Origin: Candidatus Aenigmatarchaeota archaeon
Lineage (GTDB): Archaea > Aenigmatarchaeota > Aenigmatarchaeia > Aenigmatarchaeales > JACQIB01
Assembly (NCBI GenBank): GCA_046760225.1
Contig: JBHIDR010000008.1
Coordinates: 1-22,696, forward strand
Length of the DNA stretch: 22,696 nucleotides
Direction: 5' to 3'
In this document: piece by piece, positions 2,250 through 22,057 of the stretch
How positions within the stretch are numbered: the stretch's first letter is position 1
Layout: each line of letters starts with the position of its first letter
Translations under genes and position numbers: made by a program
The notes under the pieces: model-generated
Database searches by the model: none
Told to the model about the DNA's origin: nothing
The model's input: the letters and a program-made list of their open reading frames with translations, nothing else

Positions 2250-2254
2250 TGATT

Positions 2255-3049: not shown

Positions 3050-3058
3050 TTTCAGAAC

Positions 3059-3121
3059 TTTCTCCAGCCCAGGACTCTGTCAGACTTCCTGATTATGCTG
3101 CTGGCTATTGCATCTGTCTTT
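3059..3121 (+). repeat. 63-bp exact direct repeat, copy 1 (duplicate of the 3' end of ORF 5362-5784)
   Basis: Identical to 5369-5431 (TTTCTCCAGCCCAGGACTC...GCATCTGTCTTT). Confidence 0.95.
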
Positions 3122-3166
3122 TGATTGCGCTAAACGTTTTTAAGTTCCAAAGGAGAAAAGATTTGT

Positions 3167-4156: not shown

Positions 4157-5301
4157 GATTCGTAGCAGACCGGGAATTTGTTTTCCATTCTTATGCCGTC
4201 GCTTTCTATTCTCATGTCTCTAGTTGGCTTTATATCAAACCTCTTCCATGCGTCATGAATGCTTTGGCGTACCTTTTCATCAGTATAGATTGCTATTATA
4301 CTGTCTCCTCCGCCTGCCCCTGGAAGCTTTGATGCTATTGCACCGGCTTCAAGGGCAGCGTCAATCATTTGGCTCAGTTCGGGCGTTTCAATGGGAGCAC
4401 CTGAACGCCTGCCCAGCTCCCTTGTGAGCTTACGGGAAAGCATGAAGGATTTTGCAAATTTATCTATAGCACCTCCACGATTTTCATTGATATCCCTTAA
4501 GGCTCCTATGGCTTTCTTATCCTCCTCATTCAATGTGTGTAGGAGTGCGGCATACTCATCAGGGCTCTTAGCAGCCCATTCCCTGACCTTTCTGACCATA
4601 ATGCGGGTATTGGCAGCACTCCCCGTATATCCAACAATAGTGTGTAGAACGTCTGGAAATGGCAATGGATCTATCCTGTAGTCCCAGTCGCGGTCAATTA
4701 TGCCTTTTATTGTACCTGGCAAAACATCAGGAATAAATTTCTTGCTGAAACGCTCATAGACAGCACCACCATAAACACATGCTGCAATGTCAAATCCAGA
4801 ACCAACCTTTCCCTGCGTGATGTTGTGGCTAAGCTGGGCTAACTTATGTATGGTGTCTTTATTTTCTATGACATCAAACCCATGAAAAGCGAGTATTGCA
4901 GCGATTGTCGCCACTGTGACAGCGGAAGAGCTGCCGAGACCCGACTTAGATTTCCCCCATTGGTACGTGAATGCTGGATTATTGTGAGTTGTCAGCTTAA
5001 AATGCCTAAGTTTATATCCCTTCTCGCTGATGTATCTTAAACTTAATTTCGTTGCAGTATCAGTAAAATCTGTGGCCCTTTCCGAACCAGGTTCATAAAC
5101 AAGTTCTTGGCCCTCAAAGTCTGCTGTTGTACGTATCTTGAAGTCAGGAAACTCGAACTCGAACCTATTCTCGCTTTCCGATACTCGCGCATACACTCTT
5201 TTATTGAGACTAACGACATAACCAACATTGGGCTTCTCAAGAACAGCATAACTTCCTAAAAGCAACATCTTGCCTGGTGCAGATGCTATTACTTCTTCCA
5301 T
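4144..5301 (-). CDS. Phosphomevalonate kinase (GHMP, ERG8/MvaK2-like)
   Basis: SAPGKMLLLGSYAVLE, KSGLGSSSA, QGKVGSGFDIA..VYG, IETPE, PGAGGGDSI motifs; 3' end overlaps mvaD. Confidence 0.88.
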   Translation of the reverse strand: MEEVIASAPGKMLLLGSYAVLEKPNVGYVVSLNKRVYARVSESENRFEFEFPDFKIRTTADFEGQELVYEPGSERATDFTDTATKLSLRYISEKGYKLRHFKLTTHNNPAFTYQWGKSKSGLGSSSAVTVATIAAILAFHGFDVIENKDTIHKLAQLSHNITQGKVGSGFDIAACVYGGAVYERFSKKFIPDVLPGTIKGIIDRDWDYRIDPLPFPDVLHTIVGYTGSAANTRIMVRKVREWAAKSPDEYAALLHTLNEEDKKAIGALRDINENRGGAIDKFAKSFMLSRKLTRELGRRSGAPIETPELSQMIDAALEAGAIASKLPGAGGGDSIIAIYTDEKVRQSIHDAWKRFDIKPTRDMRIESDGIRMENKFPVCYESQNK

Positions 5302-5361
5302 ATTTCTATAGATAGATAACAAGCTTATATATTAATAATATTTCTGTGTCATCATCTGGAA

Positions 5362-6330: not shown

Positions 6331-6417
6331 GTTATCGCCTAATTAATATTGACAGGGCTGTATTTAATGGTTTTGGATATAAAATAAAAAGAAAAAGAAA
6401 GAGGAAAAGGGGAAAAT

Positions 6418-6702
6418 TTAGGTGTTCACTACTATTCCACCAACCCTTCCTGCAACAATGTTGTAGATGAACGCTCCGATTACTCCTGCTACAAAGCCTA
6501 TGAACGCGAACACTATTGGCAATATGATGATTGCTGCTATTCCGAATCCTACTGCCATTCCTCCGACGCCTGGCATTCCTGCAAACATTGAAGCAAACAG
6601 GGCAAACACCAATCCGTACAAGAAGCCTATTATTGCCCATATCGCTGCAAATATCTTTCCGACTGAAACAACATCGAAGCTCTTCCACTCGACTCTCGTC
6701 AT
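6418..6702 (-). CDS. Small two-TM membrane protein (DUF3566-like)
   Basis: 'DVVSVGKI' N-terminus and 'IYN.VA..VGGI' C-terminus; strong SD GGAGGTGA. Confidence 0.7.
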   Translation of the reverse strand: MTRVEWKSFDVVSVGKIFAAIWAIIGFLYGLVFALFASMFAGMPGVGGMAVGFGIAAIIILPIVFAFIGFVAGVIGAFIYNIVAGRVGGIVVNT

Positions 6703-7641: not shown

Positions 7642-8262
7642 TTATTTCTTTCTTTTCTTACTTCTCAATTCTTTTCCATACCTGAAAAGGGCTGTCTCTA
7701 GCCTTACAATATCAAGCTTATTTTTCTTTGTAAAGGACCTGATGTCCTTTATTCCCAGCTTCTTCATCGCTATCCTCATAAGAGGTGTTGGTTTTGGCTC
7801 TGCTCTTCTCCATGTCTTTTGCATGTCGCGCAGGAATATTGATACTGTTGCAGGACCTATGCCCTTTCCGAGTCCCATGAGCCTTTTTTCAATGTCCTGG
7901 CTGTCAGATGATCTCTGATAAAGGACGTTAAGGTTTCCCCTGTACTTCTTTAACAGGGCACTGAAAACAGAAAGAAGCTTTGTGGCTGTGCTGAAATCAT
8001 ATCTGGTATAGCTGCCTGCATCAAGTATTTCAACCAAATCATCCCAGCCAGTGTCAACTATTTTCTTAGCTGTCACAACCCTTCTTCTTTCAAACTCCCT
8101 ATAAGTCCTTGTGGCGCAGCTTTCCTGGATGGGCTTTGCATACAGCAAGGACGCAAGAAACCATTTCACAATCTCTGAGTTCTTCCTGCTTCTCAGGTTT
8201 ATGCCCAGTATTTCAGAGTAGGGTTTACCATATTCCTTCAGAAGGTCCCTTATGCTTACCAT
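7642..8262 (-). CDS. HhH-GPD superfamily DNA-binding/glycosylase-like protein
   Basis: KWFLAS.L..KPI, GSYTRYD..TA..L, helix-hairpin-helix KGIGPATVSIFLR; overlaps the nfo stop. Confidence 0.65.
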   Translation of the reverse strand: MVSIRDLLKEYGKPYSEILGINLRSRKNSEIVKWFLASLLYAKPIQESCATRTYREFERRRVVTAKKIVDTGWDDLVEILDAGSYTRYDFSTATKLLSVFSALLKKYRGNLNVLYQRSSDSQDIEKRLMGLGKGIGPATVSIFLRDMQKTWRRAEPKPTPLMRIAMKKLGIKDIRSFTKKNKLDIVRLETALFRYGKELRSKKRKK

Positions 8263-9071
8263 TTTTTATACCCTAGGTTCTCAAATACCTTCTTCATTTT
8301 CAGGCTGTCCTTTTCAAGAATTGGGGACTCGCTGATTATTGTTATGTCCATTTTCTTCTTCAGTATCTCCCCTGCAACTGCTCTAAAATCTGGCTTTTTT
8401 GCAGCCAAGATCATGTGGTTCCTCTCTCCCTTCTCGGTGTAATTTATGCACGAGAAATGGGAATGCAGATGGCCGAAAGCCCTGACAGCAGAAAGCACCT
8501 TTCCGAAGTCTATGTTGCCCATTGCCCTTGCATAGAGGTGGGCGAAATCAACAACAGGCTTGCATCCCTTCACCTTCCTGCAGAGCCTTATTGTCTCCTC
8601 CAGCGAGCCAAAGGCCGAGTGCTTTCCGGTTGTCTCAGGGCCAAGAAGAACCTTCCAGCCATTACCCTTTATCTTGTCTGACATCTCCTGGCATGCATGT
8701 ACTATCATTTCCTCTACCTTCTCTTTTGAGAACTTTCCGAAGTAGCCTGGGTGGAACACAACTATCTTTGCTCCCATGTGATGGCCGCGCTCACAGGAAT
8801 CAAGAATTCGCTTCATGCTCTGCCTTATCTTTATCCTTTCCATAGAGCTCAGATTGATGTAGTAGGGAGCATGTATTGAGAGCTCTATCTTCAGTTCCTT
8901 TGCAACCTTGCCGAGCTCCTTTGCAGTCGGGTTCTTCATGCCAACTCCGCGCACGAACTCGATTTCCATGGCCTGGAGCCCAAGCTCTTTCACCTTCCTG
9001 ACCCCATCGACAGAAGTCATCCCCCTTGCAGACAAGGGTATTCCTGCTGGCCCGAGCTTTACCTTTGCCAT
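8256..9071 (-). CDS. nfo: Endonuclease IV (AP endonuclease family 2)
   Basis: HAPYYINLSS, VFHPG, PETTGK..AFGSLEE, DFAH, H.HFS, ISESP motifs. Confidence 0.9.
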   Translation of the reverse strand: MAKVKLGPAGIPLSARGMTSVDGVRKVKELGLQAMEIEFVRGVGMKNPTAKELGKVAKELKIELSIHAPYYINLSSMERIKIRQSMKRILDSCERGHHMGAKIVVFHPGYFGKFSKEKVEEMIVHACQEMSDKIKGNGWKVLLGPETTGKHSAFGSLEETIRLCRKVKGCKPVVDFAHLYARAMGNIDFGKVLSAVRAFGHLHSHFSCINYTEKGERNHMILAAKKPDFRAVAGEILKKKMDITIISESPILEKDSLKMKKVFENLGYKKW

Positions 9072-9739: not shown

Positions 9740-10264
9740 CTAAGTTTTGCCTTGGAAGTGCTCTATGACCTTGTCCAGCACAATCTTGAACCATGGTGTG
9801 TAGTTCTGCGGGTTGTTGCTTACATCCTCCTTCAGCTCATCAATTGTTACCCATTTTATCTCTGCTATTTCCTCTGGGTTGGGCTTTATCTCGCCTTCAT
9901 AATTTCCTATGAAAACATGATCGAACTCGTGCTCTGACAGTTCCCCGTCTGAATCTGCTTGATATATAAAGCTTGTGATTTCCTTGAGTCCTGTGTCAAA
10001 GCCGCATTCCTCGACCAGACGGCGGTGGGCCGCTTCTTCGGTTGTCTCTCCTTTCCTTGGATGGCTGCAGCATGTGTTTGTCCAAAGGCCGCTGAAATGA
10101 TATTTTGAAAGCGCCCTTCTCTGAAGAAGCATTTTGCCTTCGGAATTGAAGATGAAAACTGAGAATGCCCTGTGGAGTGTTCCTCCGTTCTTGTGCGCCT
10201 CTATCTTCTCCATGCTCCCTATTTCATTATCATCCCTGTCAACCAGAATCACGTATTCTGCCAT
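9740..10264 (-). CDS. idi: Isopentenyl-diphosphate delta-isomerase, type 1
   Basis: LHRAFSVFIFN, LLQRRA..KYHF.GLWTNTCCSHP, EHEFDHVF, EIAE..W, YTPWF motifs. Confidence 0.95.
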   Translation of the reverse strand: MAEYVILVDRDDNEIGSMEKIEAHKNGGTLHRAFSVFIFNSEGKMLLQRRALSKYHFSGLWTNTCCSHPRKGETTEEAAHRRLVEECGFDTGLKEITSFIYQADSDGELSEHEFDHVFIGNYEGEIKPNPEEIAEIKWVTIDELKEDVSNNPQNYTPWFKIVLDKVIEHFQGKT

Positions 10265-10563: not shown

Positions 10564-10842
10564 GGTGTGCTGGACATAGCCCGTCTTCTGTGAAGCGAAT
10601 CAGCGCTGCAATTCGCGCTTCATCTGCATCGCTTTGCAACATTTGACTTAGCTGCCTACCCGCCCCTCTTTCATCATCAGGGCCTACTTGGCATTGCACC
10701 TTGCCGGCTTGTGCCGTGAGAAACCATGAAGCTTCTCTTCGACTGCCTTGACCTCTCGGCCATGCGCCTTGGGCGCGGCAAATGTATCGGTGGACGGAAC
10801 TTCCTCACTGCAGAGCAGCGGTGGTTGCGTGCCCAGCTCACC
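10564..10842 (-). ncRNA. rnpB: RNase P RNA
   Basis: CR-I GAGGAAGUUCCGUCCACC, CR-V ACAGAAGACGGGCUA (P4 pairing), P1 GGUGAGCUGGGCA/UGUCCAGCACACC, P2 GCAAC/GUUGC, P7 UUGCCG/CGGCAA. Confidence 0.93.
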
Positions 10843-10922: not shown

Positions 10923-13622
10923 ATGAAGAATCTTGTGGTTACTGCCTTATTGATAGGTATCTTTTTTGCTGTTTTTTCAATATTTTCCTATGCGTCTGGG
11001 GAATGGATAGATCTTTATCCTTCTTACATCGTCCATGTTAATGATTCTTCCTATGCCTCGTTCGGTTTCAAATATCATAGCTCTGATAATAACAGCGCGC
11101 TCTGTATTCTATGGATTGATAACGAGGCCGTGAATGAGACAAGTGCAACCAAAGACATGCAGTATTATCTTTTTCCGAACAAAACTTATGCAGAAGGCTC
11201 ATATACGTGGTATGTCAGCTGCGAGAATGTCACAACAACCAATTCGTCGACAGGAGATTTTTATGTTGACAAGACAGGACCCTATATAGAAGTATTCCTT
11301 TGGCCCTTTGAATCCCTCTACATGGGACCTAACCAGAATCTTACAATAGAATACCATGACATCTGGACAAACATGCCTTCTCCGAATGTTACGACAAATT
11401 GTTCCGCTGACTACTATTATGGCCCATCATCTAGCCTTATCAATCAGACAGCATACGAGGAAACATATGACTGGTCGTTTTTCAATCCCAACTGCGATGT
11501 TGCAGAAGTATATGCATATGCTATTGATGATGCAGGAAATGACCAGTGGCTCAACTTCACCATTGGCCTTGATAAAGATGGCTCAGAATTCGGAAATTCC
11601 ACATTCGAAAACACAACATACAACAGGGTTGAATATCCGGTCATTGAGGTCGAAATAACAGACAGCAAAAGCGGTATTGACTATGTTGTAGGCTACATAC
11701 CGCATGATTATCTTTCCTTTATGTATGAATTTTATAACCTGAGCACGACAGACGGGCAATACGGCGTTGACGGGAATTACTCATTTGAATGGGACACCTA
11801 CATGTACTATCTGAACGGTACTGACAGCTCCTCTTCCCAGTCAACACCAGACGTCGGTGTTGTTGAGGACGAAACAGGAGACTTTATTGTCTTTGTGTGG
11901 ATAGATGAAAACGGCACCAAATCATCTCAAAACTTTGATCCGACTTTCAGTCCATGGACAGAAGGGTTTCTGATTTTTAATTCGAACGGGGAATTCACTG
12001 ATGTATATTCCATGAACCTTTCCTTTGCCACAGAAGACATTATAAGCAATGCAACAAAAGTGGTATATAGGCCAGTCAATCCTGTTACCTACGACTATAT
12101 TGGCTCATGGAACTCTTATATGGAAATAGTGCTTTTCAATGTTTCAAATTCCTCGGAGAACATCCACAACCCAAAACTCAAAAAGAGACTTTACGGGGAA
12201 TATACGAGGCGGGAAAATGTTGGTGCAGTAATAACAGCATTGGACGTTCTGGAAAACAGGAGAAGTTCAACTTATAACTTCACTGCAGATAACACCTTTA
12301 TCTTCGAAAAATATGGTGCAAATCCATCAGAACATGTGAGTTCAAACAATTCTGCAAATATAATGATCAACATAACCACAACGCGCAATGAGGCATATCC
12401 ATGGTTTAATATTTATGATTCGGACAACAAGTCAATTCTGATTCATCCATTCTTCAACAACACATACGGCAATCAGGACTCCGGATTATACATGTACCTT
12501 TGGAACGCAATCGGATTTGATATTGTGACAGAAGAATGGATAGTCAACAATGTTACAGTCGTGGAGGACAGTGTAGCAGAACTGCCGACAGTCTATATGT
12601 ACACCAACGGTACTGTAGATTGGTATGAGGTGTATGGCTATATCGAAAAGGACGGCACAAACTACAGCGCAAGATTGTTCTTTGGCTCTGATGGAATTTT
12701 GGATGATGCAGAATGCTATAATGGCTGTTCATTCGAAGGAGATGGGAATGAGACGTTCATGCCTGCAAGACATACAATCTACGCCTCATACACGCAGAGT
12801 TATTACATACCGGTAAAGTTCACAATATATGACCCGACATACCCTGTGAATGGCCCATTGAATCCTAAACTAAAATCTAGAAGCGTTCCTGACGGGAACT
12901 ACAGCTTTTATTTTGGTGCATATTGGAACAATTACAACAAAACAATGATACTGAGCACTGACAGCACAGCGCCCGACATAACCAATGTATCAGCGGTAAA
13001 TGTGACCAAAAACAGTGCTGTGATAAGCTGGGAAACGGATGAAGATACGATAGGAACAGTGTACTATGGAACTGACGCAGGTAAACTTAATCTGAATGTC
13101 AGCGAGAGCTCCTACGGAACAACCCACTCATTAACACTTACAGGACTTTCAGCAGGAACAACCTATTATTATAAGATTGTTACATTTGACCTTGGCAACA
13201 ACGGCGCTGAAAGCGAAATATTCAGCTTTGCAACAAAAAGTTCCAGTGGAGCTTCAGGAAGTGGAAGTTCTGGCGGCGGAAGCTCGGGAGGGCTGTCTGT
13301 AACAATGTCATCATCCAAGAACACTGCAAATGAGACAGATACCAATACAGCAAATGAGCCAGTAATAAACCAAGAAAATTCAACTGCTTCGGGTAAGAAC
13401 GGTACTAAGGACGTGGCGAGCAGTGCTTCAGAAACACACCAAGGAGGTATGTTTGCCCACAGCATAAGCAACATAGTGGGAATGTTCACCCAGAATACTA
13501 CAACTGGTGTGCTTGCTGTAATAGTCGGCATAAGCGGCGTGGTAAGCCAGTACCTGTACTTCAAGGGTATAGGGAAGAAAAGGAAGAGCAAAAGAAGAAA
13601 GAAAGCTAGAAAGAGGAATTAG
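10923..13622 (+). CDS. Large secreted, membrane-anchored surface glycoprotein with FN3/Ig-like domains
   Basis: Signal peptide, many N-x-S/T sequons, FN3 motif (AVISWETDE...LTGLSAGTTYYYKI), S/G linker, C-terminal TM plus basic tail; TTTATATA about 23 nt upstream. Confidence 0.85.
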   Translation: MKNLVVTALLIGIFFAVFSIFSYASGEWIDLYPSYIVHVNDSSYASFGFKYHSSDNNSALCILWIDNEAVNETSATKDMQYYLFPNKTYAEGSYTWYVSCENVTTTNSSTGDFYVDKTGPYIEVFLWPFESLYMGPNQNLTIEYHDIWTNMPSPNVTTNCSADYYYGPSSSLINQTAYEETYDWSFFNPNCDVAEVYAYAIDDAGNDQWLNFTIGLDKDGSEFGNSTFENTTYNRVEYPVIEVEITDSKSGIDYVVGYIPHDYLSFMYEFYNLSTTDGQYGVDGNYSFEWDTYMYYLNGTDSSSSQSTPDVGVVEDETGDFIVFVWIDENGTKSSQNFDPTFSPWTEGFLIFNSNGEFTDVYSMNLSFATEDIISNATKVVYRPVNPVTYDYIGSWNSYMEIVLFNVSNSSENIHNPKLKKRLYGEYTRRENVGAVITALDVLENRRSSTYNFTADNTFIFEKYGANPSEHVSSNNSANIMINITTTRNEAYPWFNIYDSDNKSILIHPFFNNTYGNQDSGLYMYLWNAIGFDIVTEEWIVNNVTVVEDSVAELPTVYMYTNGTVDWYEVYGYIEKDGTNYSARLFFGSDGILDDAECYNGCSFEGDGNETFMPARHTIYASYTQSYYIPVKFTIYDPTYPVNGPLNPKLKSRSVPDGNYSFYFGAYWNNYNKTMILSTDSTAPDITNVSAVNVTKNSAVISWETDEDTIGTVYYGTDAGKLNLNVSESSYGTTHSLTLTGLSAGTTYYYKIVTFDLGNNGAESEIFSFATKSSSGASGSGSSGGGSSGGLSVTMSSSKNTANETDTNTANEPVINQENSTASGKNGTKDVASSASETHQGGMFAHSISNIVGMFTQNTTTGVLAVIVGISGVVSQYLYFKGIGKKRKSKRRKKARKRN

Positions 13623-13638
13623 ATTATTTCTTTGTTAA

Positions 13639-13815
13639 TTAAGAGCCCATTGGGAAAAGCGCGTAGTCAAGGTAGAGCAAGCGATTGTTTGTGTCCCTTG
13701 CATATCTGAGATTACTACAATAAAGTGCAAGCTCGTCTTCAAGCTCTTTAATCTTCTTAAGTTTTTGGTCAAGGGTTCTAATATCATGGAGAAGTTTGGT
13801 TTCAACTTTGCACAT
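13639..13815 (-). CDS. Small hypothetical protein, 58 aa (not in the ORF track)
   Basis: My translation MCKVETKLLHDIRTLDQKLKKIKELEDELALYCSNLRYARDTNNRLLYLDYALFPMGS; fills the intergenic gap. Confidence 0.5.
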   Translation of the reverse strand: MCKVETKLLHDIRTLDQKLKKIKELEDELALYCSNLRYARDTNNRLLYLDYALFPMGS

Positions 13816-13861
13816 AACTAAGATTAGAACAGAAAAGGCTTATGCTGATATCTTTCTGTTT

Positions 13862-14155
13862 TCAGACCCTGTTCCAGATTGCTGCGAAAATCCAGCCTGT
13901 GATGTAGCCGCATATGAAGGCACCTATCAGGCCAATCACAGCTGCCGTTGCATCGAATGCCAGAACCGTGTACGGGTTAGTGAGCATGTGTACTCCTGAT
14001 ATCCATGCTATAAAAGCGTCTCCGATGCCTGCTGCCACGAACAGAACCCATCCTGCGTGCCATATTGCGAAAATCGCACCAAGGCTGAGTCCTGCCCTGT
14101 GCTCTTCAATCATCAGTCTTGCGGGTTTTCTTGCAGCTCTTCTTCTTTTTGCCAT
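13862..14155 (-). CDS. Small membrane protein
   Basis: 97 aa, hydrophobic segments with H..W and GY..GW.FA.IWN pattern. Confidence 0.7.
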   Translation of the reverse strand: MAKRRRAARKPARLMIEEHRAGLSLGAIFAIWHAGWVLFVAAGIGDAFIAWISGVHMLTNPYTVLAFDATAAVIGLIGAFICGYITGWIFAAIWNRV

Positions 14156-14194
14156 GAAAGTTATTCAGATTGGTTGTAAATAAAGAAATCGTTT

Positions 14195-14262
14195 TTCAGA
14201 TGCTGGGCGAATGTGCCTTCATTGCCCCGCATTTGGCTCGGCACATACTCTGGTAGCATCAA
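14195..14262 (-). ncRNA. K-turn / C/D-like hairpin in the 23S 3' trailer
   Basis: UUGAUGCU...AUGUGC CGA GCC-loop-GGC AAU GAA GGCACAU...AGCAUCUGA. Confidence 0.5.
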
Positions 14263-14294
14263 GCCAGTGGAGGAGAAATTTTAAGGGGGTCTAA
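14263..14294 (-). other. 23S pre-rRNA processing stem, 3' arm (BHB)
   Basis: UUAGACCC-CCUU-AAA-AUUUCUCCUCCACUGGC pairs with 22026-22057. Confidence 0.92.
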
Positions 14295-14509
14295 ACAAAA
14301 AGGCCGTTGGGGGCAGTGAGCTGAAATAGTCGCCGAAGCTTCTATCTTACACCCCTGCTCCATTAAACAGGTCGTCTCGCCTGTGGCCATTGCCTATTTT
14401 TCCCGGACGCTTCAGCCTTAGATGCCTTCAGGCTTTAACGCTTATGGCGTAGCTACCCGGCGTTACCATATGATAACCGGTGAACCAGAGGCCACGAGGG
14501 GGCGTTCCT

Positions 14510-15137
14510 TTTACGTGTGCCTACAAAAGATTAAATTTTACCTTGTTAGAGGTACCAACATGTTTCAAAAACTTTTCCACATTCCTCCATGTAAACACTA
14601 TCAATCTGAAAATATTGTTAGTGCCATTTTTATAGGGCCCATAGATTTTAGCTCTTATTTCCAACCTTTGTAAAATATATTGAGTGTATTCCAGAATTTT
14701 CTTGTCTTTTTGATACATTATTACTCTTATATCAGATTTCTTGTTTTTATTTTTGTATATAGAGCCTTCCGCATCAAAGAACCCCCTCAGGAAACTTATC
14801 TCATCACTTAATGTGTCAAATTTTACTTCATTGAGAGGTTTCATTAAAATGTTCAACACATCACTGTCTAGATTATTCTTGTGAATGTACACATAGATTA
14901 TATAAATTCCGTCAGGAGTTCTTAGAATCTTTGGGTTCTTTCCAGATACGTCCTTCAATATTGGAGCGATTGTATTTTCCAACCATTCCTTGTTCTTCTG
15001 CCTAACTACTATTCTTATCCTTTTGTTTAAATCGTATACGTGGCCATCCGCCAAAGATCCTTTCAAATAAGCCAGGGCTCCTTCCATGCACATTTATTTT
15101 GTTGGTTCCTTTAAATATTTTCTTAAGTAAGGCACAT
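14510..15137 (-). mobile_element. BHB intron 13 (after Ec 2661, sarcin-ricin loop), endonuclease-encoding
   Basis: UACG-AA^A-UGUGCCU...AGGCACA-CGUA-AA^A; splicing restores AGUACGAAAGGAAC. Confidence 0.9.
14521..15093 (-). CDS. LAGLIDADG homing endonuclease (two motifs)
   Basis: LAYLKGSLADGH and FLRGFFDAEGS. Confidence 0.9.
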   Translation of the reverse strand: MCMEGALAYLKGSLADGHVYDLNKRIRIVVRQKNKEWLENTIAPILKDVSGKNPKILRTPDGIYIIYVYIHKNNLDSDVLNILMKPLNEVKFDTLSDEISFLRGFFDAEGSIYKNKNKKSDIRVIMYQKDKKILEYTQYILQRLEIRAKIYGPYKNGTNNIFRLIVFTWRNVEKFLKHVGTSNKVKFNLL

Positions 15138-15296
15138 TTCGTACTTGCCCCTTCTTCGGGTCAGGCAACAACACCCTCAGTAGATATAAACCGTACTGTC
15201 TTTGTCGTTTGGTGTAGGACACCCAAAAAGCATAAGCGAGACAATTCTCTTAGGCTCATAAGCTACTCCTTGCGGGCATATCTAGCCTATGGGGCG

Positions 15297-15365
15297 GTTT
15301 CAGTCATTGCCTGAACTGCCTCGATATAAATTTATCATACCCTGGTATACCAACCTCATTGAAAT
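15297..15365 (-). ncRNA. Possible second intron-encoded C/D sRNA
   Basis: AAUGAGG-guide UUGGUAUACCAGGGU-AUGA...guide GCAGUUCAGGCA-AUGA; weak terminal stem UUUCA/UGAAA; degenerate C'. Confidence 0.4.
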
Positions 15366-15439
15366 GGCTACCAAACTCTGAAAGTTTCGGTCACAGCCAG
15401 AGCTAATGCTCTCTCAGTTGGATCATCTGAGGTATGACA

Positions 15440-15512
15440 GCAGGAATCGGATGTGACCTCATCTGTCATCTGCATAATGCATCATATTATCGACACTAAC
15501 CTCATACCCTGC
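15440..15512 (-). ncRNA. Intron-encoded box C/D sRNA
   Basis: Stem GCAGG/CCUGC, C UAUGAGG, D' AUGA, UGCA/UGCA hairpin, C' GAUGACA, D CCGA; D guide UGAGGUCACAU has 11/11 complementarity to 23S at 21905-21915. Confidence 0.75.
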
Positions 15513-15611
15513 TCGAAGACCACTATTGTTTGCGTCCCACTACCAAATCACGACGTACTGAACCCAGCTAATGTCCCCCTTTGATCAGTGAACACCTGCA
15601 CCCTTGGCTGC

Positions 15612-16414
15612 TTGCAGTTCAAGATAGGAAACCGGTATCAGGCAAGCCTCTTCAAAAATGCCATAATTTCTGGTTTGGTTTTGAATTTTTTCAATTCCAA
15701 TTGTTTTACTTCGTAACTTCTTACTGCGATATCAAGCACTTTATTCTTCTCGTATCCTTCCCAGTTCTTACTATCACCTGTTACCCTTACGCTTGGAATG
15801 AATCTTATTGTTCTCGCAAATTTTTTGATATCTTTTTTCTTTATTAATAAAACTTCATCATTTTCAGGTCTTATAATGGGCTCAAAACCGAGTTCTCTTA
15901 ACAGTGCATATACTTGTCTTCTTATTGTCGGATGCTTACAAGCAAATTTAACCCACTTTTTTATTTCCCATAATCCATATCTCTTATTCCAAACAACCCA
16001 TAAGCTAATTGAACCGTCGCAAGAAAACATTACTTGCAACATTCTAATCTTATGGATTTTAGGAAGTTTGAAAACAAACTTCGGTATTCTGGAATTTGGG
16101 AATTTCCCATTTTCCAGCTGTTTTGTTCTAAATGTGGGTATTAGCGTTAGCAAATATTCTCCTATTCTCTTGCTGGTAACCTTTGTTTTAATAACATCTC
16201 TGTATCTACTATCTCTGAATTGAGTAAATTTTACGTCACCAAAGATGTCCCTCATAATTTTCTTAAAAAGGCTGTGTAATTCTTTGGATTTACCTGTAAA
16301 TTCTATAACCCAGCCTCTACCTTTAGAGCTAACGCTTCCGTCTGTTAAAAGCAACCCTACTAACAAGGCTAAGTGACCCGATACCGGCGTGCTACGCACA
16401 TCCCCATCCTGAAT
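15612..16414 (-). mobile_element. BHB intron 11 (after Ec 2534), endonuclease-encoding
   Basis: GCAG-UA^A-UUCAGGAUGGGGA...UUCCUAUCUUGAA-CUGC-AA^G; second stem CCGGUAUCGGG/CCUGAUACCGG encloses the ORF. Confidence 0.9.
15638..16399 (-). CDS. LAGLIDADG homing endonuclease (probable GTG start inside the intron)
   Basis: LALLVGLLLTDGSV and MLQVMFSCDGSI motifs; G-rich SD-like sequence before GTG 16399. Confidence 0.82.
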   Translation of the reverse strand: MRSTPVSGHLALLVGLLLTDGSVSSKGRGWVIEFTGKSKELHSLFKKIMRDIFGDVKFTQFRDSRYRDVIKTKVTSKRIGEYLLTLIPTFRTKQLENGKFPNSRIPKFVFKLPKIHKIRMLQVMFSCDGSISLWVVWNKRYGLWEIKKWVKFACKHPTIRRQVYALLRELGFEPIIRPENDEVLLIKKKDIKKFARTIRFIPSVRVTGDSKNWEGYEKNKVLDIAVRSYEVKQLELKKFKTKPEIMAFLKRLA

Positions 16415-16440
16415 TACTGCACAGCCAGGAGGGGGGAAGC

Positions 16441-16474
16441 TTCTGCCTACAGTAAGTTTGCACCTAGCTGTAGT
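16441..16474 (-). other. BHB intron 10, 34 nt (after Ec 2508)
   Basis: CUGU-CG^A-CUACAG...CUGUAG-GCAG-AA^G. Confidence 0.88.
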
Positions 16475-16499
16475 CGACAGCGAGGTAGCAACGCGCGGG

Positions 16500-16745
16500 T
16501 TCTCGTTCCGAGAAGGGCTATAATTTCTCCCCAATTGGTTCCTCAAAAATAAATCTGACTTCTTGCTTTTATTTTGAAACGATTTTTTAAGTGACATAAA
16601 ATCACTGACCGAATATTTGTCGAAACTTCTTTATCTAAATTTCGTGTCTGGATAATATCAATGACCGAAATTGAGAATATGGAAGTTGAGACAGAGGTCA
16701 AGTGATTTTATGGAACCTATTGAAGAGAAAACCCCTCACCGAAAT
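16500..16745 (-). other. BHB intron 9, 246 nt (after Ec 2483); probable endonuclease-deleted remnant
   Basis: AUCG-AC^A-UUUCG...CGGAA-CGAG-AA^C (one mismatch in the central helix); splicing restores AUCGACCCCGC. Confidence 0.82.
16622..16690 (-). ncRNA. Conserved intron RNA motif, copy in intron 9
   Basis: UC-AACUUCC-AUAUUCUC-[stem]-UAGAUAA-AGAAGUU-UC. Confidence 0.75.
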
Positions 16746-16751
16746 GTCGAT

Positions 16752-16791
16752 TTGCTCATTGCTATCTTTCTGTTGAAAGATTTGAGCAATT
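16752..16791 (-). other. BHB intron 8, 40 nt (after Ec 2477)
   Basis: GCUC-CU^A-AUUGCU...AGCAAU-GAGC-AA^A. Confidence 0.88.
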
Positions 16792-16964
16792 AGGAGCTCT
16801 CGCCCGCCACGACTCTGTTATCCCCGGGGTAGCTTTTCTGAAGTCACCGGCATCCATCAAGGACAAACTGGTGTATCGTTAGCCCACGCTTTCGCGGCTG
16901 GATCCTTTACTGTGCAGAATCCAGTCAGGCCTCCTTTTGCGCTTACACTCTACTCCTGATTTCT

Positions 16965-16995
16965 TTCTGGAAGCAATAGCTATGACTAATGCTAT
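16965..16995 (-). other. BHB intron 7, 31 nt (after Ec 2306)
   Basis: CUGG-UC^A-UAGCA...UGCUU-CCAG-AA^A. Confidence 0.85.
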
Positions 16996-17014
16996 GACCA
17001 GGATGAGGAAACCT

Positions 17015-17053
17015 ATGCCCGAATATCTCCCAGACTAATCTGATAGATACTCT
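17015..17053 (-). other. BHB intron 6, 39 nt (after Ec 2287)
   Basis: GCCC-AA^A-GAGUAUCU...AGAUAUUC-GGGC-AU^A. Confidence 0.9.
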
Positions 17054-17280
17054 TTGGGCGCCCTTGATCTCCTGTCAAGGGCGTACCGCCCCAGCCAAGC
17101 TGTCCACCAACCGGTGTCCCCCCGAGTCGAGGGTTAGCCATACAGTCACAAAACGGCAGTGTTACATTGGCGCCTATCCAACGCCCGAAAACGTTGGCTT
17201 AGCAGCTCCTGCCTACACTATGGAAACGTAACCATACAGCAACGACAGGCTACAGCAGAGCTTTCCGTTGAGGTAAATAG

Positions 17281-17988
17281 TCAAAGAAGCGACAACCGCT
17301 GTTCAGTTGTTAGTTTAGGCGGGCAATTGCCCGTCTTTTCAAAAAGATAAATTTTTGACAAATGTTTTGGATTGAAAAAACCAATTTTATACATCCAATC
17401 GTTCAACATCTTCTTTCCATACATCCTTATCCTGAATTCTTTGAAACCTCTTCTTGAGGTCTTCTCAAGAGCAGGTTTAAAGCCCAGCAGTTTAAGCTGA
17501 GTCTGCACAAAATCTGCCAGTACTTCATTATTTGTGAACATCTCTATTCTAGGTTCGCAGTGTAGACCTTTTCTATTCTTTTTGAATGAAACAGAAAAAT
17601 CTGCATCTGCAAGCCCTCGTATGAAGTGTGGTATAAGACTTCCTTGAATCCATATCGGTACGTGCTTCAATTTCAATTTATTACCAACAGGAATTCCAAT
17701 GTTAACTTTCTTTTGTACGACTTCTTTGGAATTCAGAACAGCTATTAATGTACGTTCTCCCTTCTTCAAATAAACCCTTGGTCTTTTCCTATAAAGTCTT
17801 TCTATGATGTCTGGAACAATATTGGAATAAAATTCCTTATCGTTCTCTACATCACCAGAAAATTCCACACGGAAAATCCCATGATTTTTATTTATGTAAA
17901 GACAACCATCACCCAAATGTAAACCAGTTTCATATGCAAATAATTCCTTCTTTTTAAGTTTTTTGATATGAAAATTTTTAATTTTCAT
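17281..17988 (-). CDS. LAGLIDADG homing endonuclease
   Basis: FAYETGLHLGDGC and FIRGLADADFS. Confidence 0.9.
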   Translation of the reverse strand: MKIKNFHIKKLKKKELFAYETGLHLGDGCLYINKNHGIFRVEFSGDVENDKEFYSNIVPDIIERLYRKRPRVYLKKGERTLIAVLNSKEVVQKKVNIGIPVGNKLKLKHVPIWIQGSLIPHFIRGLADADFSVSFKKNRKGLHCEPRIEMFTNNEVLADFVQTQLKLLGFKPALEKTSRRGFKEFRIRMYGKKMLNDWMYKIGFFNPKHLSKIYLFEKTGNCPPKLTTEQRLSLL

Positions 17989-18002
17989 GAGGACATTTAG
18001 GT

Positions 18003-18056
18003 GAAGCTGACTTATCTAACTTTCTATGAAATAGAAAGGGAGAATATGTCAGCTGA
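18003..18056 (-). ncRNA. Conserved intron RNA motif, copy in intron 5
   Basis: UC-AGCUGAC-AUAUUCUC-[stem]-UAGAUAA-GUCAGCU-UC. Confidence 0.75.
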
Positions 18057-18219
18057 ACTCGCCTCTTCTCATTCTACTTAACCCCATCCACGGGGTCTTC
18101 TCTTCCCTCTGAGGGTCTGTGGCCTATTCACCACAAAAGCAGGTTCGCCGGGGTCCGACCCGGGACAGTGGGAAAGTCGTTAATCCATTCATGCGGGCCG
18201 ACAATTAATCGGCAAGGGA

Positions 18220-18251
18220 TTTCGTTGTAAGGTCTGGGAAGACCTTGACAT
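18220..18251 (-). other. BHB intron 4, 32 nt (after Ec 1938)
   Basis: GCGU-AA^A-UGU(C)AAGGUC...GACCUUACA-ACGA-AA^U (one central mismatch). Confidence 0.82.
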
Positions 18252-18539
18252 TTACGCTACCTTAAGACGGTCAGAGTTACCGCCGCCGTTTACGGGGGCT
18301 TGGCCCGGTTGAAACCGGGTTTAACACACCCGCACTGGGCAGGACTCACCAACTATACTTAGGATTTCTCCCTAGCAGTCAGCTACGTTTTTGTTAAACA
18401 GTCGCCTTCCCCTGGTTACTGAGACCTACCTGATCTCCAGATAGGCAAGGGTTCTACCAAAGATACCCCTCTAATTTGCCGAGTTCCCTGGATCGGTGTA
18501 TCCCGTCACGCCGTCGCCTTTTCAGCAAGAGTCACCTGT

Positions 18540-18569
18540 ATCCTGAGATATTAGTGAAGCTAATATCTT
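18540..18569 (-). other. BHB intron 3, 30 nt (after Ec 1615)
   Basis: ACUG-AC^A-AGAUAUUAG...CUAAUAUCU-CAGG-AU^A; splicing restores AACUGACACAGGUG. Confidence 0.85.
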
Positions 18570-19033
18570 GTCAGTTCTTGATACGGACACAGCCAATCCG
18601 ACCGGTTTCATTTTCATGGTCTCCTGGAGTCACCCGAACTCCCGTATACACAGAAGCTATTAGCGCCTTCACCCGGTTCTCTCTTTGACAGAACTTCCCG
18701 GGTTTCAGCGGTTAACTTACGTCGGACTATCCTGAAGCGTCTGAAACCGGACTTGCGTTGCCGCGTGTATGGCCGTGGTGCAGGAATATTAACCTGCTTC
18801 CCTTTCCCGAGCTTCAGTTAAGGGCTCAGTTAGGATCGACTAACTCCCGGCTGAACGACATTGCCGGGAAAATCTTGCTCTTCTGGCGGTCGGGGTTCCA
18901 ACCCGACTTTGCTGCTACTACCAGCAGGATTCTCATTTCCGGGCGGTCCACACCTGCTTACGCAGATGCTTCTGTCCGCGCGGAACGCCTTCCTACGCTA
19001 TGACTTTCGTCATCTGGGGTCTCGGTAGCAAGC

Positions 19034-20053
19034 TTACTCCCGTCCATTTTCACCGCGCCGCCCCTCGACGGGTCCGCTGTTTCGTGGGCGATGAATCAAC
19101 TTTAATAAAACTTCCAAATTCCTTTTCTTTGGGTGTGCAGACCCAATTAAAAAACAAAATTTTTCTATGTCATCTTTATTGCGAATACTTAATGTCCATC
19201 TTGGATATGTGCTGCCTTTGTCAGGCATCGTTACAGATAAGTTCGACTTAATCTTCAAGTCCAATAAAATTTTTTTCATATCTTGCAAAGGCGGACATGC
19301 TGTTCGGCTATCCCAGCTCTGATAAAATCTTATTGCCATATTCTGCTTCATGGCCTTCTTCAAAGACATATCAGCTAGGTTGCCACATCCGCCTTCTGCG
19401 TCAAAAAACCCTTTGATGTAAGCTTTTTTCAGTCTTTCTGGAGCCTTCAATACGATTGATGGGGTTCGCCATTTCGTTTGCTTACCAAATGGATGATTGC
19501 AAACGACATGTAAAAATGTAGCCATAATTCTTGATTCGACTCGTAAACCCCATACATCACCCCTAAAAAGCGTGTATTGTGGCTTTTGATTAAAGTTCTC
19601 AAATACGGGTTTGATTTCTGTTTCCAGCCAAGATTTGTGCTTGGCAGAAACCATCACACTGTATCTGTGCTTTCCTGACGATGATATGAAGTGGCTTACA
19701 CTCCCATCTCGTAATGCTCCTAGAAAGTATGCCAGCCTCTCATCAAAAGTTTTGGGCAGAATGACATGTTCGGGGCTTCCAAGCAGCCCGATAAACTCGA
19801 ACTGCCTGAAAGCTTCGTCTAGTAGCTTTGCATTCGAAGTCCTAGCGACATCTTTCACAAAGGCTATCGTCGGCAAAGACGACCATGCCCGTACTGAAAG
19901 ATAGCGTTCAAGACTTTTTACGGAATATCCAAACTTTTTTGCAAAGCCTCTGTATGTCATGCCATTATCATCCCAATAAGCTCTGACAAGCTTCTTTACT
20001 CCACCCAGACGAAAATCGCCTGGTAGTTTATTGAGATAATTTGATAGATGCAC
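19034..20053 (-). CDS. HTH + LAGLIDADG homing endonuclease; stop codon lies in the downstream exon
   Basis: HTH-like GMTYRGFAKKFGYSVKSLERY, LAYFLGALRDGSV, YIKGFFDAEGG. Confidence 0.87.
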   Translation of the reverse strand: MHLSNYLNKLPGDFRLGGVKKLVRAYWDDNGMTYRGFAKKFGYSVKSLERYLSVRAWSSLPTIAFVKDVARTSNAKLLDEAFRQFEFIGLLGSPEHVILPKTFDERLAYFLGALRDGSVSHFISSSGKHRYSVMVSAKHKSWLETEIKPVFENFNQKPQYTLFRGDVWGLRVESRIMATFLHVVCNHPFGKQTKWRTPSIVLKAPERLKKAYIKGFFDAEGGCGNLADMSLKKAMKQNMAIRFYQSWDSRTACPPLQDMKKILLDLKIKSNLSVTMPDKGSTYPRWTLSIRNKDDIEKFCFLIGSAHPKKRNLEVLLKLIHRPRNSGPVEGRRGENGRE

Positions 20054-20099
20054 ATACCCTTAATGGGTCCGCTAGTATTTATAGTCGACTCCTTCGCCT
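19081..20099 (-). mobile_element. BHB intron 2 (after Ec 1095), endonuclease-encoding
   Basis: CGCG-UA^A-GGCGA...UCGCC-CACG-AA^A (one central mismatch; boundaries +/-1); splicing restores GCGUAACAGC. Confidence 0.85.
20076..20083 (-). promoter_or_regulatory. Putative intron-internal TATA box for the endonuclease
   Basis: TATAAATA about 22 nt upstream of the GTG at 20053. Confidence 0.5.
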
Positions 20100-20661
20100 T
20101 ACGCGTTGATTATCGGATGGCTGCTTCTGAGCCTACCGCCCCGCTGTTTTTGGAACGGCACCAGCTTTGTGACTTAGCTTGCATTTGGGGACCTTAACCC
20201 CAGGCTAGCTTGTTCGCTTTTCGGATACCTAGCTTACCCAGGTACCCTCACTCCCACCTTCTATGGCGCTTGCAGATTATTAGTTTGACAGGAAAGACAG
20301 GGATTTCTCCCCACAACTTCCCAATCAGTGCTTTACCCCACAAGCTACCTCTGGTGAGGCTGTGCTGAGACACATTTCGGAAGGAACCAGCTATTAGGAC
20401 TCTCGATTGGCTTTTCACCCCTATGCCCAGGTCACCCGATCACTTTGAGATAGAACCGGTAACAGGCCTCCACGGAGCTTTCGCCCCGCTTCACCTTGCC
20501 CAGGCATAGATCGAGTCCTTTCGGGTCTTATCCCCGTGACTCCTCGCGCTTTCACACGACGCCCCTGGCCCGAAGGCTGCGGGCTTTTTGCTTTCGCTAT
20601 GGCTACGCGCCGAAGCGCTTAACCTTGCCACGAGAATAAACTCCCTGCCACGTGATTCTCG

Positions 20662-21291
20662 TTAAAGAAGCGCTCTCAGTTTCTTCGCCTTTATAGGATG
20701 TTCAAATCCTATTTTTTCAACAAAAATAGAAGCTTGTTTTTTTCCATTAATATGTATCATTGAAAAATCATTATATTCATAGAGGTTCGATTTTATTCCT
20801 TCTAAAGAAAGAACCTCAAAAACGTCTTTTGCTAACCCATGATTATGGACTTTCATTTGAATTCTCAAATATCCGTTCTTATGGTGAGAATCCTTCATTT
20901 CGATAACCGAACCTTCGGCATCAAAAAGTCCACATAAAAGAGAACATCTTAATTTTGAGTCCTCTTTGACGGTCTTCGGTACTCTTACTATCCTGGACTT
21001 ATTACCCGAAGGTATTCCAAGATGCTTAAATATTGTCCATATTTTCTTGGAATGCACATAAGCTACAAAGGAGTTATTGTAGCTATCAAAGTATATTTTT
21101 GGCATCCTCTTGAAGACCTTTGAAAATTTTCTAGCAAATATTTCTTGTATAAATTCTTTATTTTCTTCTACTGCCCTCACAAGATATTTACTGGAAAGAT
21201 TTCCGTCTCCAATTATGAATCCCATCAGATAATTCAAATCCTCATTATTTTTCAGAATTTCAGCTTCTTTATTGAAAATTTGAATTTTCAT
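20662..21291 (-). CDS. LAGLIDADG homing endonuclease
   Basis: LNYLMGFIIGDGN and LLCGLFDAEGS. Confidence 0.92.
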   Translation of the reverse strand: MKIQIFNKEAEILKNNEDLNYLMGFIIGDGNLSSKYLVRAVEENKEFIQEIFARKFSKVFKRMPKIYFDSYNNSFVAYVHSKKIWTIFKHLGIPSGNKSRIVRVPKTVKEDSKLRCSLLCGLFDAEGSVIEMKDSHHKNGYLRIQMKVHNHGLAKDVFEVLSLEGIKSNLYEYNDFSMIHINGKKQASIFVEKIGFEHPIKAKKLRALL

Positions 21292-21305
21292 GGGTCTTCT
21301 TAGGC

Positions 21306-21372
21306 GAAGCTTCCTTATCTACTTTTCGCGTCTCCCTACGTCCAAGACCGAAAAGGAGAATATGGAAACTGA
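21306..21372 (-). ncRNA. Conserved intron RNA motif, copy in intron 1
   Basis: UC-AGUUUCC-AUAUUCUC-[stem]-UAGAUAA-GGAAGCU-UC. Confidence 0.75.
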
Positions 21373-22025
21373 GTCATCACACTTGCTCTAATTTCGAAAC
21401 GGACACCATGACACTGTAAGCCTTTCCTCCTACACACCCATTTCTGGATTTTCGTTCGGAAAGGCACCTTTCGCGCCATGGCTGACTATAACTGACTGGC
21501 TTCAAGCTCTTTTCATCTTCTATGAAGAATGCTTTTCAGCTTTCTGTCACCATACTAGTGCGCTATCGGACTCCAGACATATTTAGGGTTGGGTGTTGAT
21601 GCCACCCACCTTCCTACAGCATATCCGAGCTGCAGTACTCTTTTCCCGCAATCAGCTTTCTGTCCTACCCCTACAGGGCTATCACCTTCTCGGGCACGCC
21701 TTTCCAGGCGACTTCGAGTCGGACAGCGAAGCTGTACACGGGTTCCACATATCCACTGCATTTCTGCAGCGATTCGGTTTGCCCTGTTCCGCCTTCACTC
21801 GCCGTTACTAACGGAATCGAATTTCTTTCTCTTCCTCCGCTTAATAAGATGCTTCAATCCAGCGGGTTCCCTTTCTCCGAAGAGAATGACAGCCGAAGCT
21901 GCCGTGAGGTCACATTAGGTAATTCCTGGTTCTAGGGCTGCGTGCGCCTCGCCAGGACTTATCGCAGCTTGCTACGACCTTCTTCAGTGCTGGAGCCAAG
22001 CTATCCACCAGGCAGTGTGTGGTGC

Positions 22026-22057
22026 TTAGACCCTATCCTCATTTCTCCTCCACTGGC
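22026..22057 (-). other. 23S pre-rRNA processing stem, 5' arm (BHB)
   Basis: GCCAGUGGAGGAGAAAU-GAGG-AUA-GGGUCUAA; with 14263-14294 forms 17 bp / 3-nt bulge / 4 bp / 3-nt bulge / 8 bp. Confidence 0.92.

Follow-up and report, generated by a model that had tools for sequence, protein, structure and literature searches.

A conserved hairpin with a promoter-like 3′ arm recurs in three bulge-helix-bulge introns of an archaeal 23S rRNA gene

Archaeal rRNA genes are known to harbor introns of the bulge-helix-bulge (BHB) type that carry LAGLIDADG genes, as well as mini-introns and remnants that lack an open reading frame (ORF), as described in the available portions of two studies, one of Thermoproteales 16S introns (PMC4496867) and one of co-occurrence with group I introns (PMC6125680). 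The accessible text of the former reports that predicted structures are not generally conserved, even within one insertion locus. Expression of the homing endonuclease genes in such introns is poorly documented; these genes sit in RNA that is transcribed at high levels but not translated, and most mRNAs of the hosts are leaderless. Here we analyze a 22,696-nt stretch of DNA from a Candidatus Aenigmatarchaeota archaeon (assembly GCA_046760225.1, contig JBHIDR010000008.1, positions 1 to 22,696; hereafter the window), whose heavily interrupted 23S rRNA gene carries the same hairpin motif in three introns, I1, I3 and I4a. The element is well supported as a real feature specific to this intron family, and its function we infer. 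Our tentative reading is that it works at two levels, as the predicted promoter of a leaderless endonuclease mRNA in its 3′ arm and as an RNA hairpin that would serve the intron.

The motif is present in three copies, all on the minus strand of the window and oriented like the 23S rRNA (Table 1). An original prediction, made from the letters of the sequence, had placed them at these coordinates and had written their stems as we find them; both were confirmed. Each copy runs in the same order: a stem strand, AUAUUCUC, a hairpin, UAGAUAA and the returning stem strand. In the 23S sense, ATATTCTC occurs only three times in the window, and TAGATAA follows 21–35 nt later in all three cases. The combined two-strand pattern has three matches where 0.01 are expected, and none of 100 shuffles contained three or more. 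All 15 core letters are identical across the copies, and conservation extends past the limits originally drawn, to UUUC/GAAA within stem 2, to UC on both flanks and, in copies 1 and 2, to RCCUAA after the 3′ UC. A covariance model built from the three copies (R1), searched across the window with filters off, found no further copy; the next-best hit scored 13.1 bits once the reverse strands of the copies themselves (20.9 and 13.4 bits) are set apart.

Covariation, an invariant core and folding stability support the motif as a selected, structured cis element. Standard pairs occupy 37 of the 39 cells formed by 13 stem pairs in three copies, the exceptions being in copy 3 (C.A, top of stem 1) and copy 2 (C.U, base of stem 2). 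Five of the 13 pairs change on both sides. Only 5–11 of 500 shuffles reached the observed pairing measures, and pairing fell to 28–62% when the partners were slid out of place; this covariation evidence comes from only three paralogous copies, all in one gene. Each hairpin is also more stable than all 200 of its shuffles (z values in Table 1). The two internal strands, described as invariant in the original prediction, are indeed identical in their letters, and they need not be single-stranded: UAU/AUA and CU/AG can pair mutually, so that the core becomes an irregular helix, the same in all copies, interrupted by A.A and C.U mismatches and a bulged U. Folds of full-length I3 and I4a retain the hairpin, with stem 1 pair probabilities of 0.84–1.0. 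The full-length fold of I1 retains the upper part, and there the 3′ tail can take over the pairing of lower stem 1. Going up from the helices that bring the intron ends together, one meets the hairpin as the first branch in each of the three introns.

The hairpin matches no described RNA family or motif against which it was compared. As the original prediction had proposed, the copies were checked against Rfam: none matched Rfam 15 at E values up to 1 (13000–17300) or up to 10 (17250–21420), and scans of the window at gathering thresholds returned only LSU rRNA and RNase P, leaving the group I, group II and endonuclease-associated motif families unmatched. Two weak hits elsewhere were set aside. 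PK-repZ (19.8 bits, E 0.39) falls inside the I3 ORF and was taken as chance; a SNORD38 match resembling a C/D-box snoRNA (14782–14836, minus strand; 26.1 bits against a gathering threshold of 44, E 0.051) falls inside the I6 ORF and is probably chance as well. A kink-turn (K-turn) or L7Ae site was rejected since AUAUUCUC contains no G at all and a single GA occurs in the 3′ strand, which leaves no tandem G.A pairs. Judged by eye against short consensus motifs, the core did not fit a K-turn, a C/D box, a BHB-like cut site or an 11-nt receptor.

The internal loop also invites comparison with H/ACA hairpins and K-turn (L7Ae) sites, with which it shares a two-sided loop of 8 + 7 nt between two stems. 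An H/ACA-like guide would pair this loop with 23S rRNA (AUAUCUA-CU-GAGGGUGU, 15187–15171), and 14 of the 15 loop letters can indeed pair with that exon stretch in guide-like geometry. We nevertheless rejected this idea as scarcely credible. An equal or better match arose in 52 of 200 shuffles of the gene region, placing the rRNA complementarity at chance level; no ACA or ANA box stands at a fixed place after stem 1, the upper stem lacks a K-turn and its G.A pairs, and the first unpaired target letter is C rather than U.

Each copy lies inside a separate BHB intron, in agreement with the earlier assignment to three different introns. The boundaries are predicted from the BHB together with alignment to E. 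coli; the BHB structures come from our own script rather than a trained model, that of I4a was found by hand, and the junctions were checked against E. coli. The I1 structure, CGU UUCG AAA UUAGAG / CUUUAA CGAG AAUC ACG, has 4 bp and bulges of 3 and 4 nt, and the Rfam alignment shows a 738-nt insert at this site. The I3 structure, CCGU GGA UGGGGU / ACCUCA ACGG AAA, is a canonical 3-4-3. The I4a structure contains one mismatch ((A)UCG ACA UUUCGG / UCGGAA CGA(G) AAC; three of four central pairs, 3-nt bulges), and about 25 bp of closing helices join the ends of this intron. Predicted removal of I1, I3 and I4a restores the E. coli 23S alignment at ~572, ~2070 and 2483/2484 with no change in length. 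R1 did not find the motif in the other BHB introns of the gene, namely I4b, the 347-nt intron, I6 and two mini-introns.

The three host introns resemble one another at their ends as well as in the motif. All start with AU and end with (A)CG(A)GAA, and I1 and I4a share the terminal AACGAGAA (20656–20663 and 16500–16507). The 3′ end of an intron must pair with the 5′ exon in a BHB, and I1 and I4a follow similar exon letters, UUUCGAA (exon 21393–21400) and UAUCGAC (exon 16746–16753), which suggests a possible route by which the family could colonize look-alike new sites. A fresh deletion of I1 or I3 does not account for I4a: similarity is confined to the motif and, for I1, the last 8 nt, and blastx and blastn found no endonuclease remnant in I4a.

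Two of the copies stand directly before homing endonuclease genes. The original prediction had put every copy upstream of a start codon, 14 nt away for copies 1 and 2 and 24 nt away for copy 3. These spacings are correct, and copies 1 and 2 do mark the starts of LAGLIDADG genes, whereas copy 3 sits in an intron without an ORF; there the motif caps a 16-bp helix (16712–16696 / 16610–16595) in which the supposed downstream AUG is buried. Five minus-strand ORFs of the window match the Pfam family LAGLIDADG_3. The proteins of I1 and I3 are 29.7% identical over 212 residues, and the two introns are homologous elements.

It is very improbable that the copies are functionless, left by recent duplication or by gene conversion between introns of one gene. 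All copies do lie in one gene, and the strict pattern CATATTCTC-N15-45-TAGATAANNNANNTTC, run across 185,579 species genomes, recovered none elsewhere: it gave 53 loci with one match each, all 53 attributable to chance, although it demanded all invariant letters and diverged copies would escape it. None of these loci has the stems (the best reaches 5/7 + 4/7 pairs), the loci do not include the window's own genome, and the best R1 score among them, 27.9 bits (L039), comes from a site where two protein genes of the opposite strand meet. Against an origin by copying alone, each stem strand differs at 2–3 of its 7 positions and the differences compensate one another, the proteins that go with the copies are unrelated or 30% identical, and conversion would homogenize the stems too rather than the core alone.

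The distance from hairpin to AUG matches the promoter register of the host's first genes. We compared the regions upstream of 16 host ORFs, seven of which are operon-internal. Among the nine that head transcription units, seven have an A/T-rich 8-mer at exactly −30..−23 from the ATG and no leader, and are therefore leaderless; in the other two (1806 and 4144–5322) the start is uncertain and the register is without a box. The gene for RNase P RNA (10565–10841) has CTTTAAAA at about −32..−25, and the internal gene 6332–6688 has a strong Shine-Dalgarno sequence, GGAGGTGA, before its ATG. The host thus appears, from sequence, to combine leaderless first genes with Shine-Dalgarno sequences for internal genes. 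In I1 and I3, the 3′ arm of the hairpin together with the 14-nt spacer forms a promoter-like stretch in which TAGATAAG fills the TATA register after a GAAA that resembles a B recognition element (BRE), and the 14 nt are therefore better read as promoter-to-start spacing, or as plain inheritance. Other intron genes show a comparable arrangement: TATAAATA lies at −30..−23 of the GTG of the I2 endonuclease gene and TATTTAAA at −30..−23 of the second ATG of the I6 gene. As first noted for I1 and I3, which lack a clear Shine-Dalgarno sequence, none was found at any intron ORF.

A matrix derived from the host promoters ranks the same stretches highly. An unconstrained search for the TATA-box motif of the host strayed to unrelated sites, and a fixed-register matrix from the seven host promoters, chosen by eye, was used instead. 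It gives 4.35 bits for I1 (top 0.9% of window 14-mers) and 4.13 bits for I3 (top 1.1%); leave-one-out scores of the host promoters span −3.8 to 9.4. Of five shifts compared, shift 0 scores highest in both introns, and this stretch is the top-scoring site of the 5′ non-coding part of each. Translation initiation on the excised intron, the role first proposed for the cis-acting element, is not supported, given the leaderless first genes with their TATA boxes at −30..−23, the intron ORFs without Shine-Dalgarno sequences, and copy 3, whose intron has no ORF, so that the hairpin cannot serve translation there. What stands of that proposal is the structured cis element itself, linked in two introns to the start of a LAGLIDADG gene; autoregulation or protein binding may still play a part.

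Several observations weigh against a promoter. TAGATAAG has a G at box position 3, where all seven host boxes and those of I2 and I6 have T. The matrix is weak, resting as it does on seven promoters picked by eye, and it reaches at least 4.1 bits at 99 of 7730 sense positions of the 23S region, mostly in A/T-rich ORFs. Eight of the 14 spacer letters are identical between I1 and I3; the spacers are homologous, and their equal length may simply be inherited. Copy 3 retains GAAA and TAGATAA though its intron has no gene to transcribe. The promoter regions of I2 and I6 do not fall in stable hairpins (z +1.29 and −0.68), and a hairpin is therefore no general need of intron promoters. The species-genome scan, whose 53 matches were all chance, supplied no homologous intron DNA. 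A promoter also fails to account for the letters that stay unpaired, and yet invariant, in the 5′ arm (A, the bulged U and C).

A promoter alone also leaves the covarying stems, the invariance of the 5′ arm and the retention of the hairpin in I4a unexplained, and these features therefore point to a role for the RNA hairpin in the pre-rRNA or the excised intron. Selection on the RNA is further indicated by a core identical in 15 of 15 letters between introns whose proteins are so divergent, and by its survival in an intron with no ORF. One way to account for this is a purely structural domain that helps the intron fold so that its ends meet for EndA, or that stabilizes the excised circle, the promoter register being coincidental. 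The position of the hairpin above the end-joining helices in all three introns and its retention in I4a agree with such a domain, as does the ability of the 5′ strand of stem 1 to pair with the 3′ tail in I1 (CUCAGUUUC/GAAACUGAG) and, with one mismatch, in I3 (GUUCAGCUG/CAACUGAAC). We consider it unlikely as a full explanation: structure alone would not need 15 invariant core letters, the other BHB introns of the gene (I4b, the 347-nt intron, I6 and two mini-introns) lack the hairpin, and the exact fit to the host TATA register stays unexplained.

Relatives of the endonucleases provide a single further view of the upstream region. At E values of 1e-5 or below, we counted 36 relatives of the I1 endonuclease and 34 of the I3 endonuclease, almost all on short metagenome contigs; one carries the source label Candidatus Micrarchaeota. 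An MK start occurs at the equivalent position in at least 6 of the 36 and 9 of the 34. The C-terminal tails of 10 of the 36 I1 relatives and at least two I3 relatives are exon 2 translated in one of three frames, which places these relatives at the same rRNA sites. The stop-less I1 relatives that run into 23S exon 2, between them in all three frames, are P0007, P0008, P0010, P0011, P0014, P0017, P0018, P0019, P0028 and P0034; the run-on marks the insertion site and shows that part of each such database gene call is rRNA. Ten codons ahead of the AUG of I1 and I3, the core's UAG forms an in-frame stop, and upstream read-throughs can therefore show only variants of the motif. Such N-terminal read-through occurs in one of the 70 relatives, P0022. 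Its last 13 codons agree with the upstream DNA of I1 and I3 at 25 of 39 positions, a level reached by 7 and 18 of 2000 residue shuffles, respectively. Where the window has TAG-ATA-AGx, P0022 has Tyr-Ile-Asn, that is TAY-ATH-AAY, a homologous stretch that remains A/T-rich and TATA-like with the G gone. This variant, a single and indirect case, fits a TATA box better than a strictly invariant RNA core.

The same variant bears on whether the element could act only as RNA, with the intron's own LAGLIDADG protein or a host protein binding it, on the excised intron or on a leadered mRNA, to control translation, stability or folding. The A.A, U and C.U irregularities are invariant though single changes could pair A.A and C.U, as is typical of a recognition site; the core is retained in ORF-less I4a, as expected for a factor acting in trans, and the hairpin lies near the AUG in I1 and I3. 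Yet it is hard to see how an AUG 100 nt inside the intron would be used with no Shine-Dalgarno sequence in the spacer and a host whose first genes are leaderless. The missing tandem G.A pairs argue that the site is not a K-turn, and P0022 has lost the G of UAGAUAA. On balance we find an RNA-only element doubtful. A more specific version, that the hairpin is a putative binding site of the LAGLIDADG proteins or of one host protein that aids folding or splicing and feeds back on expression, is quite improbable. If it held, ORF-less I4a would persist by using the protein in trans, and archaeal endonuclease-spliced introns, which are not known to need an assisting protein, would have a maturase-like, protein-assisted layer.

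We infer promoter activity and an RNA-level role for the same element as the best joint account of these observations. The motif would be a 5′ domain conserved within a single family of mobile archaeal BHB introns, of which this 23S gene has three paralogous copies, each at a site of its own. As DNA, its 3′ arm and the 14-nt spacer would form the intron's own promoter, with the BRE-like GAAA, the TATA-like TAGATAAG at −30..−23 and an A/T patch near −10, and would give rise to a leaderless mRNA, beginning at the AUG, for the LAGLIDADG endonuclease. Read in this way, a promoter explains the invariant 3′ arm, the exact spacing and register, the missing Shine-Dalgarno sequence and the P0022 variant. 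As RNA, in the pre-rRNA and the excised intron, the stretch would fold back on its complementary 5′ arm into a stable, irregular hairpin directly atop the helix that joins the two intron ends. The hairpin would hold the intron in a compact shape that lets the BHB splice structure form, and proteins may bind to it as well.

The 23S gene extends well past its Rfam placement on the minus strand. Rfam aligns it to 22032–16724, a forced alignment, and a local Rfam scan puts model positions 2174–2535 at 17262–16829 with nothing beyond. Alignment to E. coli rrlH (L001) located later exons that continue downstream (Table 1), and the gene therefore runs to about 14300; the Rfam alignment ends (16724) about 2.4 kb before the real 3′ end. 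At least nine inserts interrupt this gene (14300–22032). The 347-nt intron matched no Rfam family, group I intron included, and no convincing BHB was found for I2 (ORF 19034–20053).

A 319-aa ORF (15638–16597, minus strand) that matches LAGLIDADG is spurious: it covers two pieces of exon along with portions of three introns, passing through the I4a tail, the exon piece for E. coli 2492–2508 (16491–16475), the 32–34-nt mini-intron, the exon piece for 2509–2538 (16440–16411) and I4b. The I4b endonuclease probably starts at GUG 16402, 12 nt past the 5′ splice site; no TATA-like box lies upstream, the −36..−23 interval being GC-rich exon. A second BHB-like pairing (15644–16726, minus strand; GGG GUUU UCU CUUCAA / UUGAAG AGGC UUG CCU) would remove 1083 nt including the better-conserved exon pieces, and would join a second, poorer look-alike of E. 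coli 2500–2530 (GAUACCGGUUUCCUAUCUUGAACUG, about 15636–15612) in the I4b tail. It was rejected because it breaks the helix 89 pairing.

The spliced rRNA departs from conserved E. coli letters at several places (15137/14510, 16491–16475 and 15570–15190, minus strand). In the sarcin-ricin loop (AGUACGAAAGGAAC) an A replaces G2661 of E. coli, and CUCGCUGUCG stands in place of E. coli CUCGAUGUCG (position 2503). Changes in helix 93 (CAGUACG...CAGUACGG) look compensatory, which speaks against a pseudogene and for an rRNA that works although it has diverged. Elsewhere the window contains archaeal genes, among them TRM1, isopentenyl phosphate kinase, mevalonate-pathway enzymes and RNase P RNA. Its isoprenoid cluster (2249–5322, 9740–10264) encodes isopentenyl phosphate kinase, diphosphomevalonate decarboxylase, phosphomevalonate kinase and type-1 IPP isomerase, thus bringing together parts of the classical and the archaeal mevalonate routes.

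Table 1. Motif copies, introns, genes, promoter-like stretches and 23S exons in the window. Bits are from the R1 covariance model; z values are for fold stability; E. coli positions are 23S positions.
Feature	Position	Strand	Details
Motif copy 1 (I1)	21306–21372	minus	97.8 bits; z −4.2; UC 21372–21371; stem 1 21370–21364 with 21314–21308; AUAUUCUC 21363–21356; stem 2 21355–21349 with 21328–21322; UAGAUAA 21321–21315; UC 21307–21306
Motif copy 2 (I3)	18003–18056	minus	75.6 bits; z −6.15; stem 1 18054–18048 with 18011–18005; AUAUUCUC 18047–18040; inner stem 8 bp, loop UUC; UAGAUAA 18018–18012
Motif copy 3 (I4a)	16622–16690	minus	92.5 bits; z −3.9; stem 1 16687–16681 with 16630–16624 (top pair C.A); AUAUUCUC 16680–16673; UAGAUAA 16637–16631
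Promoter-like stretch, I1	21292–21327	minus	GAAAAG −36..−31; TAGATAAG −30..−23; CCTAA −13..−9; AUG 21291
Promoter-like stretch, I3	17989–18024	minus	GAAAGT and TAGATAAG at −36..−23, then spacer ACCTAAATGTCCTC
LAGLIDADG_3 endonuclease gene, I1	20662–21291	minus	209 aa; MKI start; E 1.2e-10
LAGLIDADG_3 endonuclease gene, I3	17281–17988	minus	235 aa; MKI start
Intron I1	20656–21392	minus	737 nt; after E. coli ~572; motif 20 nt into intron
Insert I2		minus	
~27–31-nt insert	near 18251–18225	minus	
Intron I3	17263–18087	minus	825 nt; after E. coli ~2070; motif 31 nt into intron
87-nt insert	near 17000	minus	
40-nt mini-intron	16791–16752	minus	BHB
Intron I4a	16500–16745	minus	246 nt; ORF-less; helix 89 loop, between E. 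coli 2483 and 2484
32–34-nt mini-intron		minus	
Intron I4b	16413–15613	minus	endonuclease intron; BHB
347-nt intron	15548–15202	minus	ORF-less; after E. coli 2597; BHB GUCG UGA UUUGGU / ACCAAA CGAC AAA
Intron I6	15137–14510	minus	sarcin-ricin loop; BHB
Exon, E. coli 2539–2597	15607–15549	minus	
Exon, E. coli 2598–2667	15201–15132	minus	
Exon, E. coli 2683–2759	14488–14417	minus	
Exon, E. coli 2821–2852	14377–14346	minus	
Host genes with box in register	730–1791; 3167; 8256–9071; 9740–10264; 10923; 13862–14155; 22518		seven genes

The window offers a testable answer to how an endonuclease gene buried in rRNA might be expressed: an intron-borne promoter in the exact leaderless register of the host. 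If this is true, the same letters would be read as a DNA signal and as an RNA structure within one intron family. Retention in ORF-less I4a hints that the intron RNA uses the hairpin in folding, splicing or protein binding. The hairpin also gives a means of detecting this intron family in metagenomes, a setting in which heavily interrupted rRNA genes are easily mis-annotated. Neither the motif nor promoters inside archaeal rRNA introns are described in the available portions of PMC6125680, PMC4496867 and PMC11270868, or in our full-text literature searches, whose scope excluded older subscription papers on archaeal introns. Within the literature searched, no description was found of a hairpin domain that several insertion sites have in common and whose invariant core overlaps a promoter-like stretch.

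The element can be compared with several known systems. As in archaeal BRE/TATA promoters of leaderless mRNAs, an A/T-rich 8-mer at −30..−23 follows a purine-rich hexamer and no Shine-Dalgarno sequence is present; unlike those promoters, the box has G at position 3 (T in nine local boxes), and it forms the 3′ arm of a covarying hairpin that is found in a gene-less intron as well. Group II introns carry a high-affinity site for their intron-encoded protein (IEP) at the ORF start (DIVa). Like DIVa, the hairpin described here is irregular and lies right before the start codon of a mobile intron's own gene, and DIVa-type sites are likewise kept in ORF-less derivatives that rely on protein in trans. 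The intron class and protein family are different, however, and no start codon or ribosome site lies inside our hairpin. A further comparison is with archaeal BHB rRNA introns themselves. The introns of this window share with them, as far as the available portions of PMC4496867 and PMC6125680 describe, a BHB at the junctions, splicing (predicted here) that restores conserved rRNA, LAGLIDADG ORFs, and ORF-less remnants and hairpin mini-introns of <50 nt within the same gene. They depart from those descriptions in that a ~67-nt hairpin with an invariant core is common to introns at three different insertion sites.

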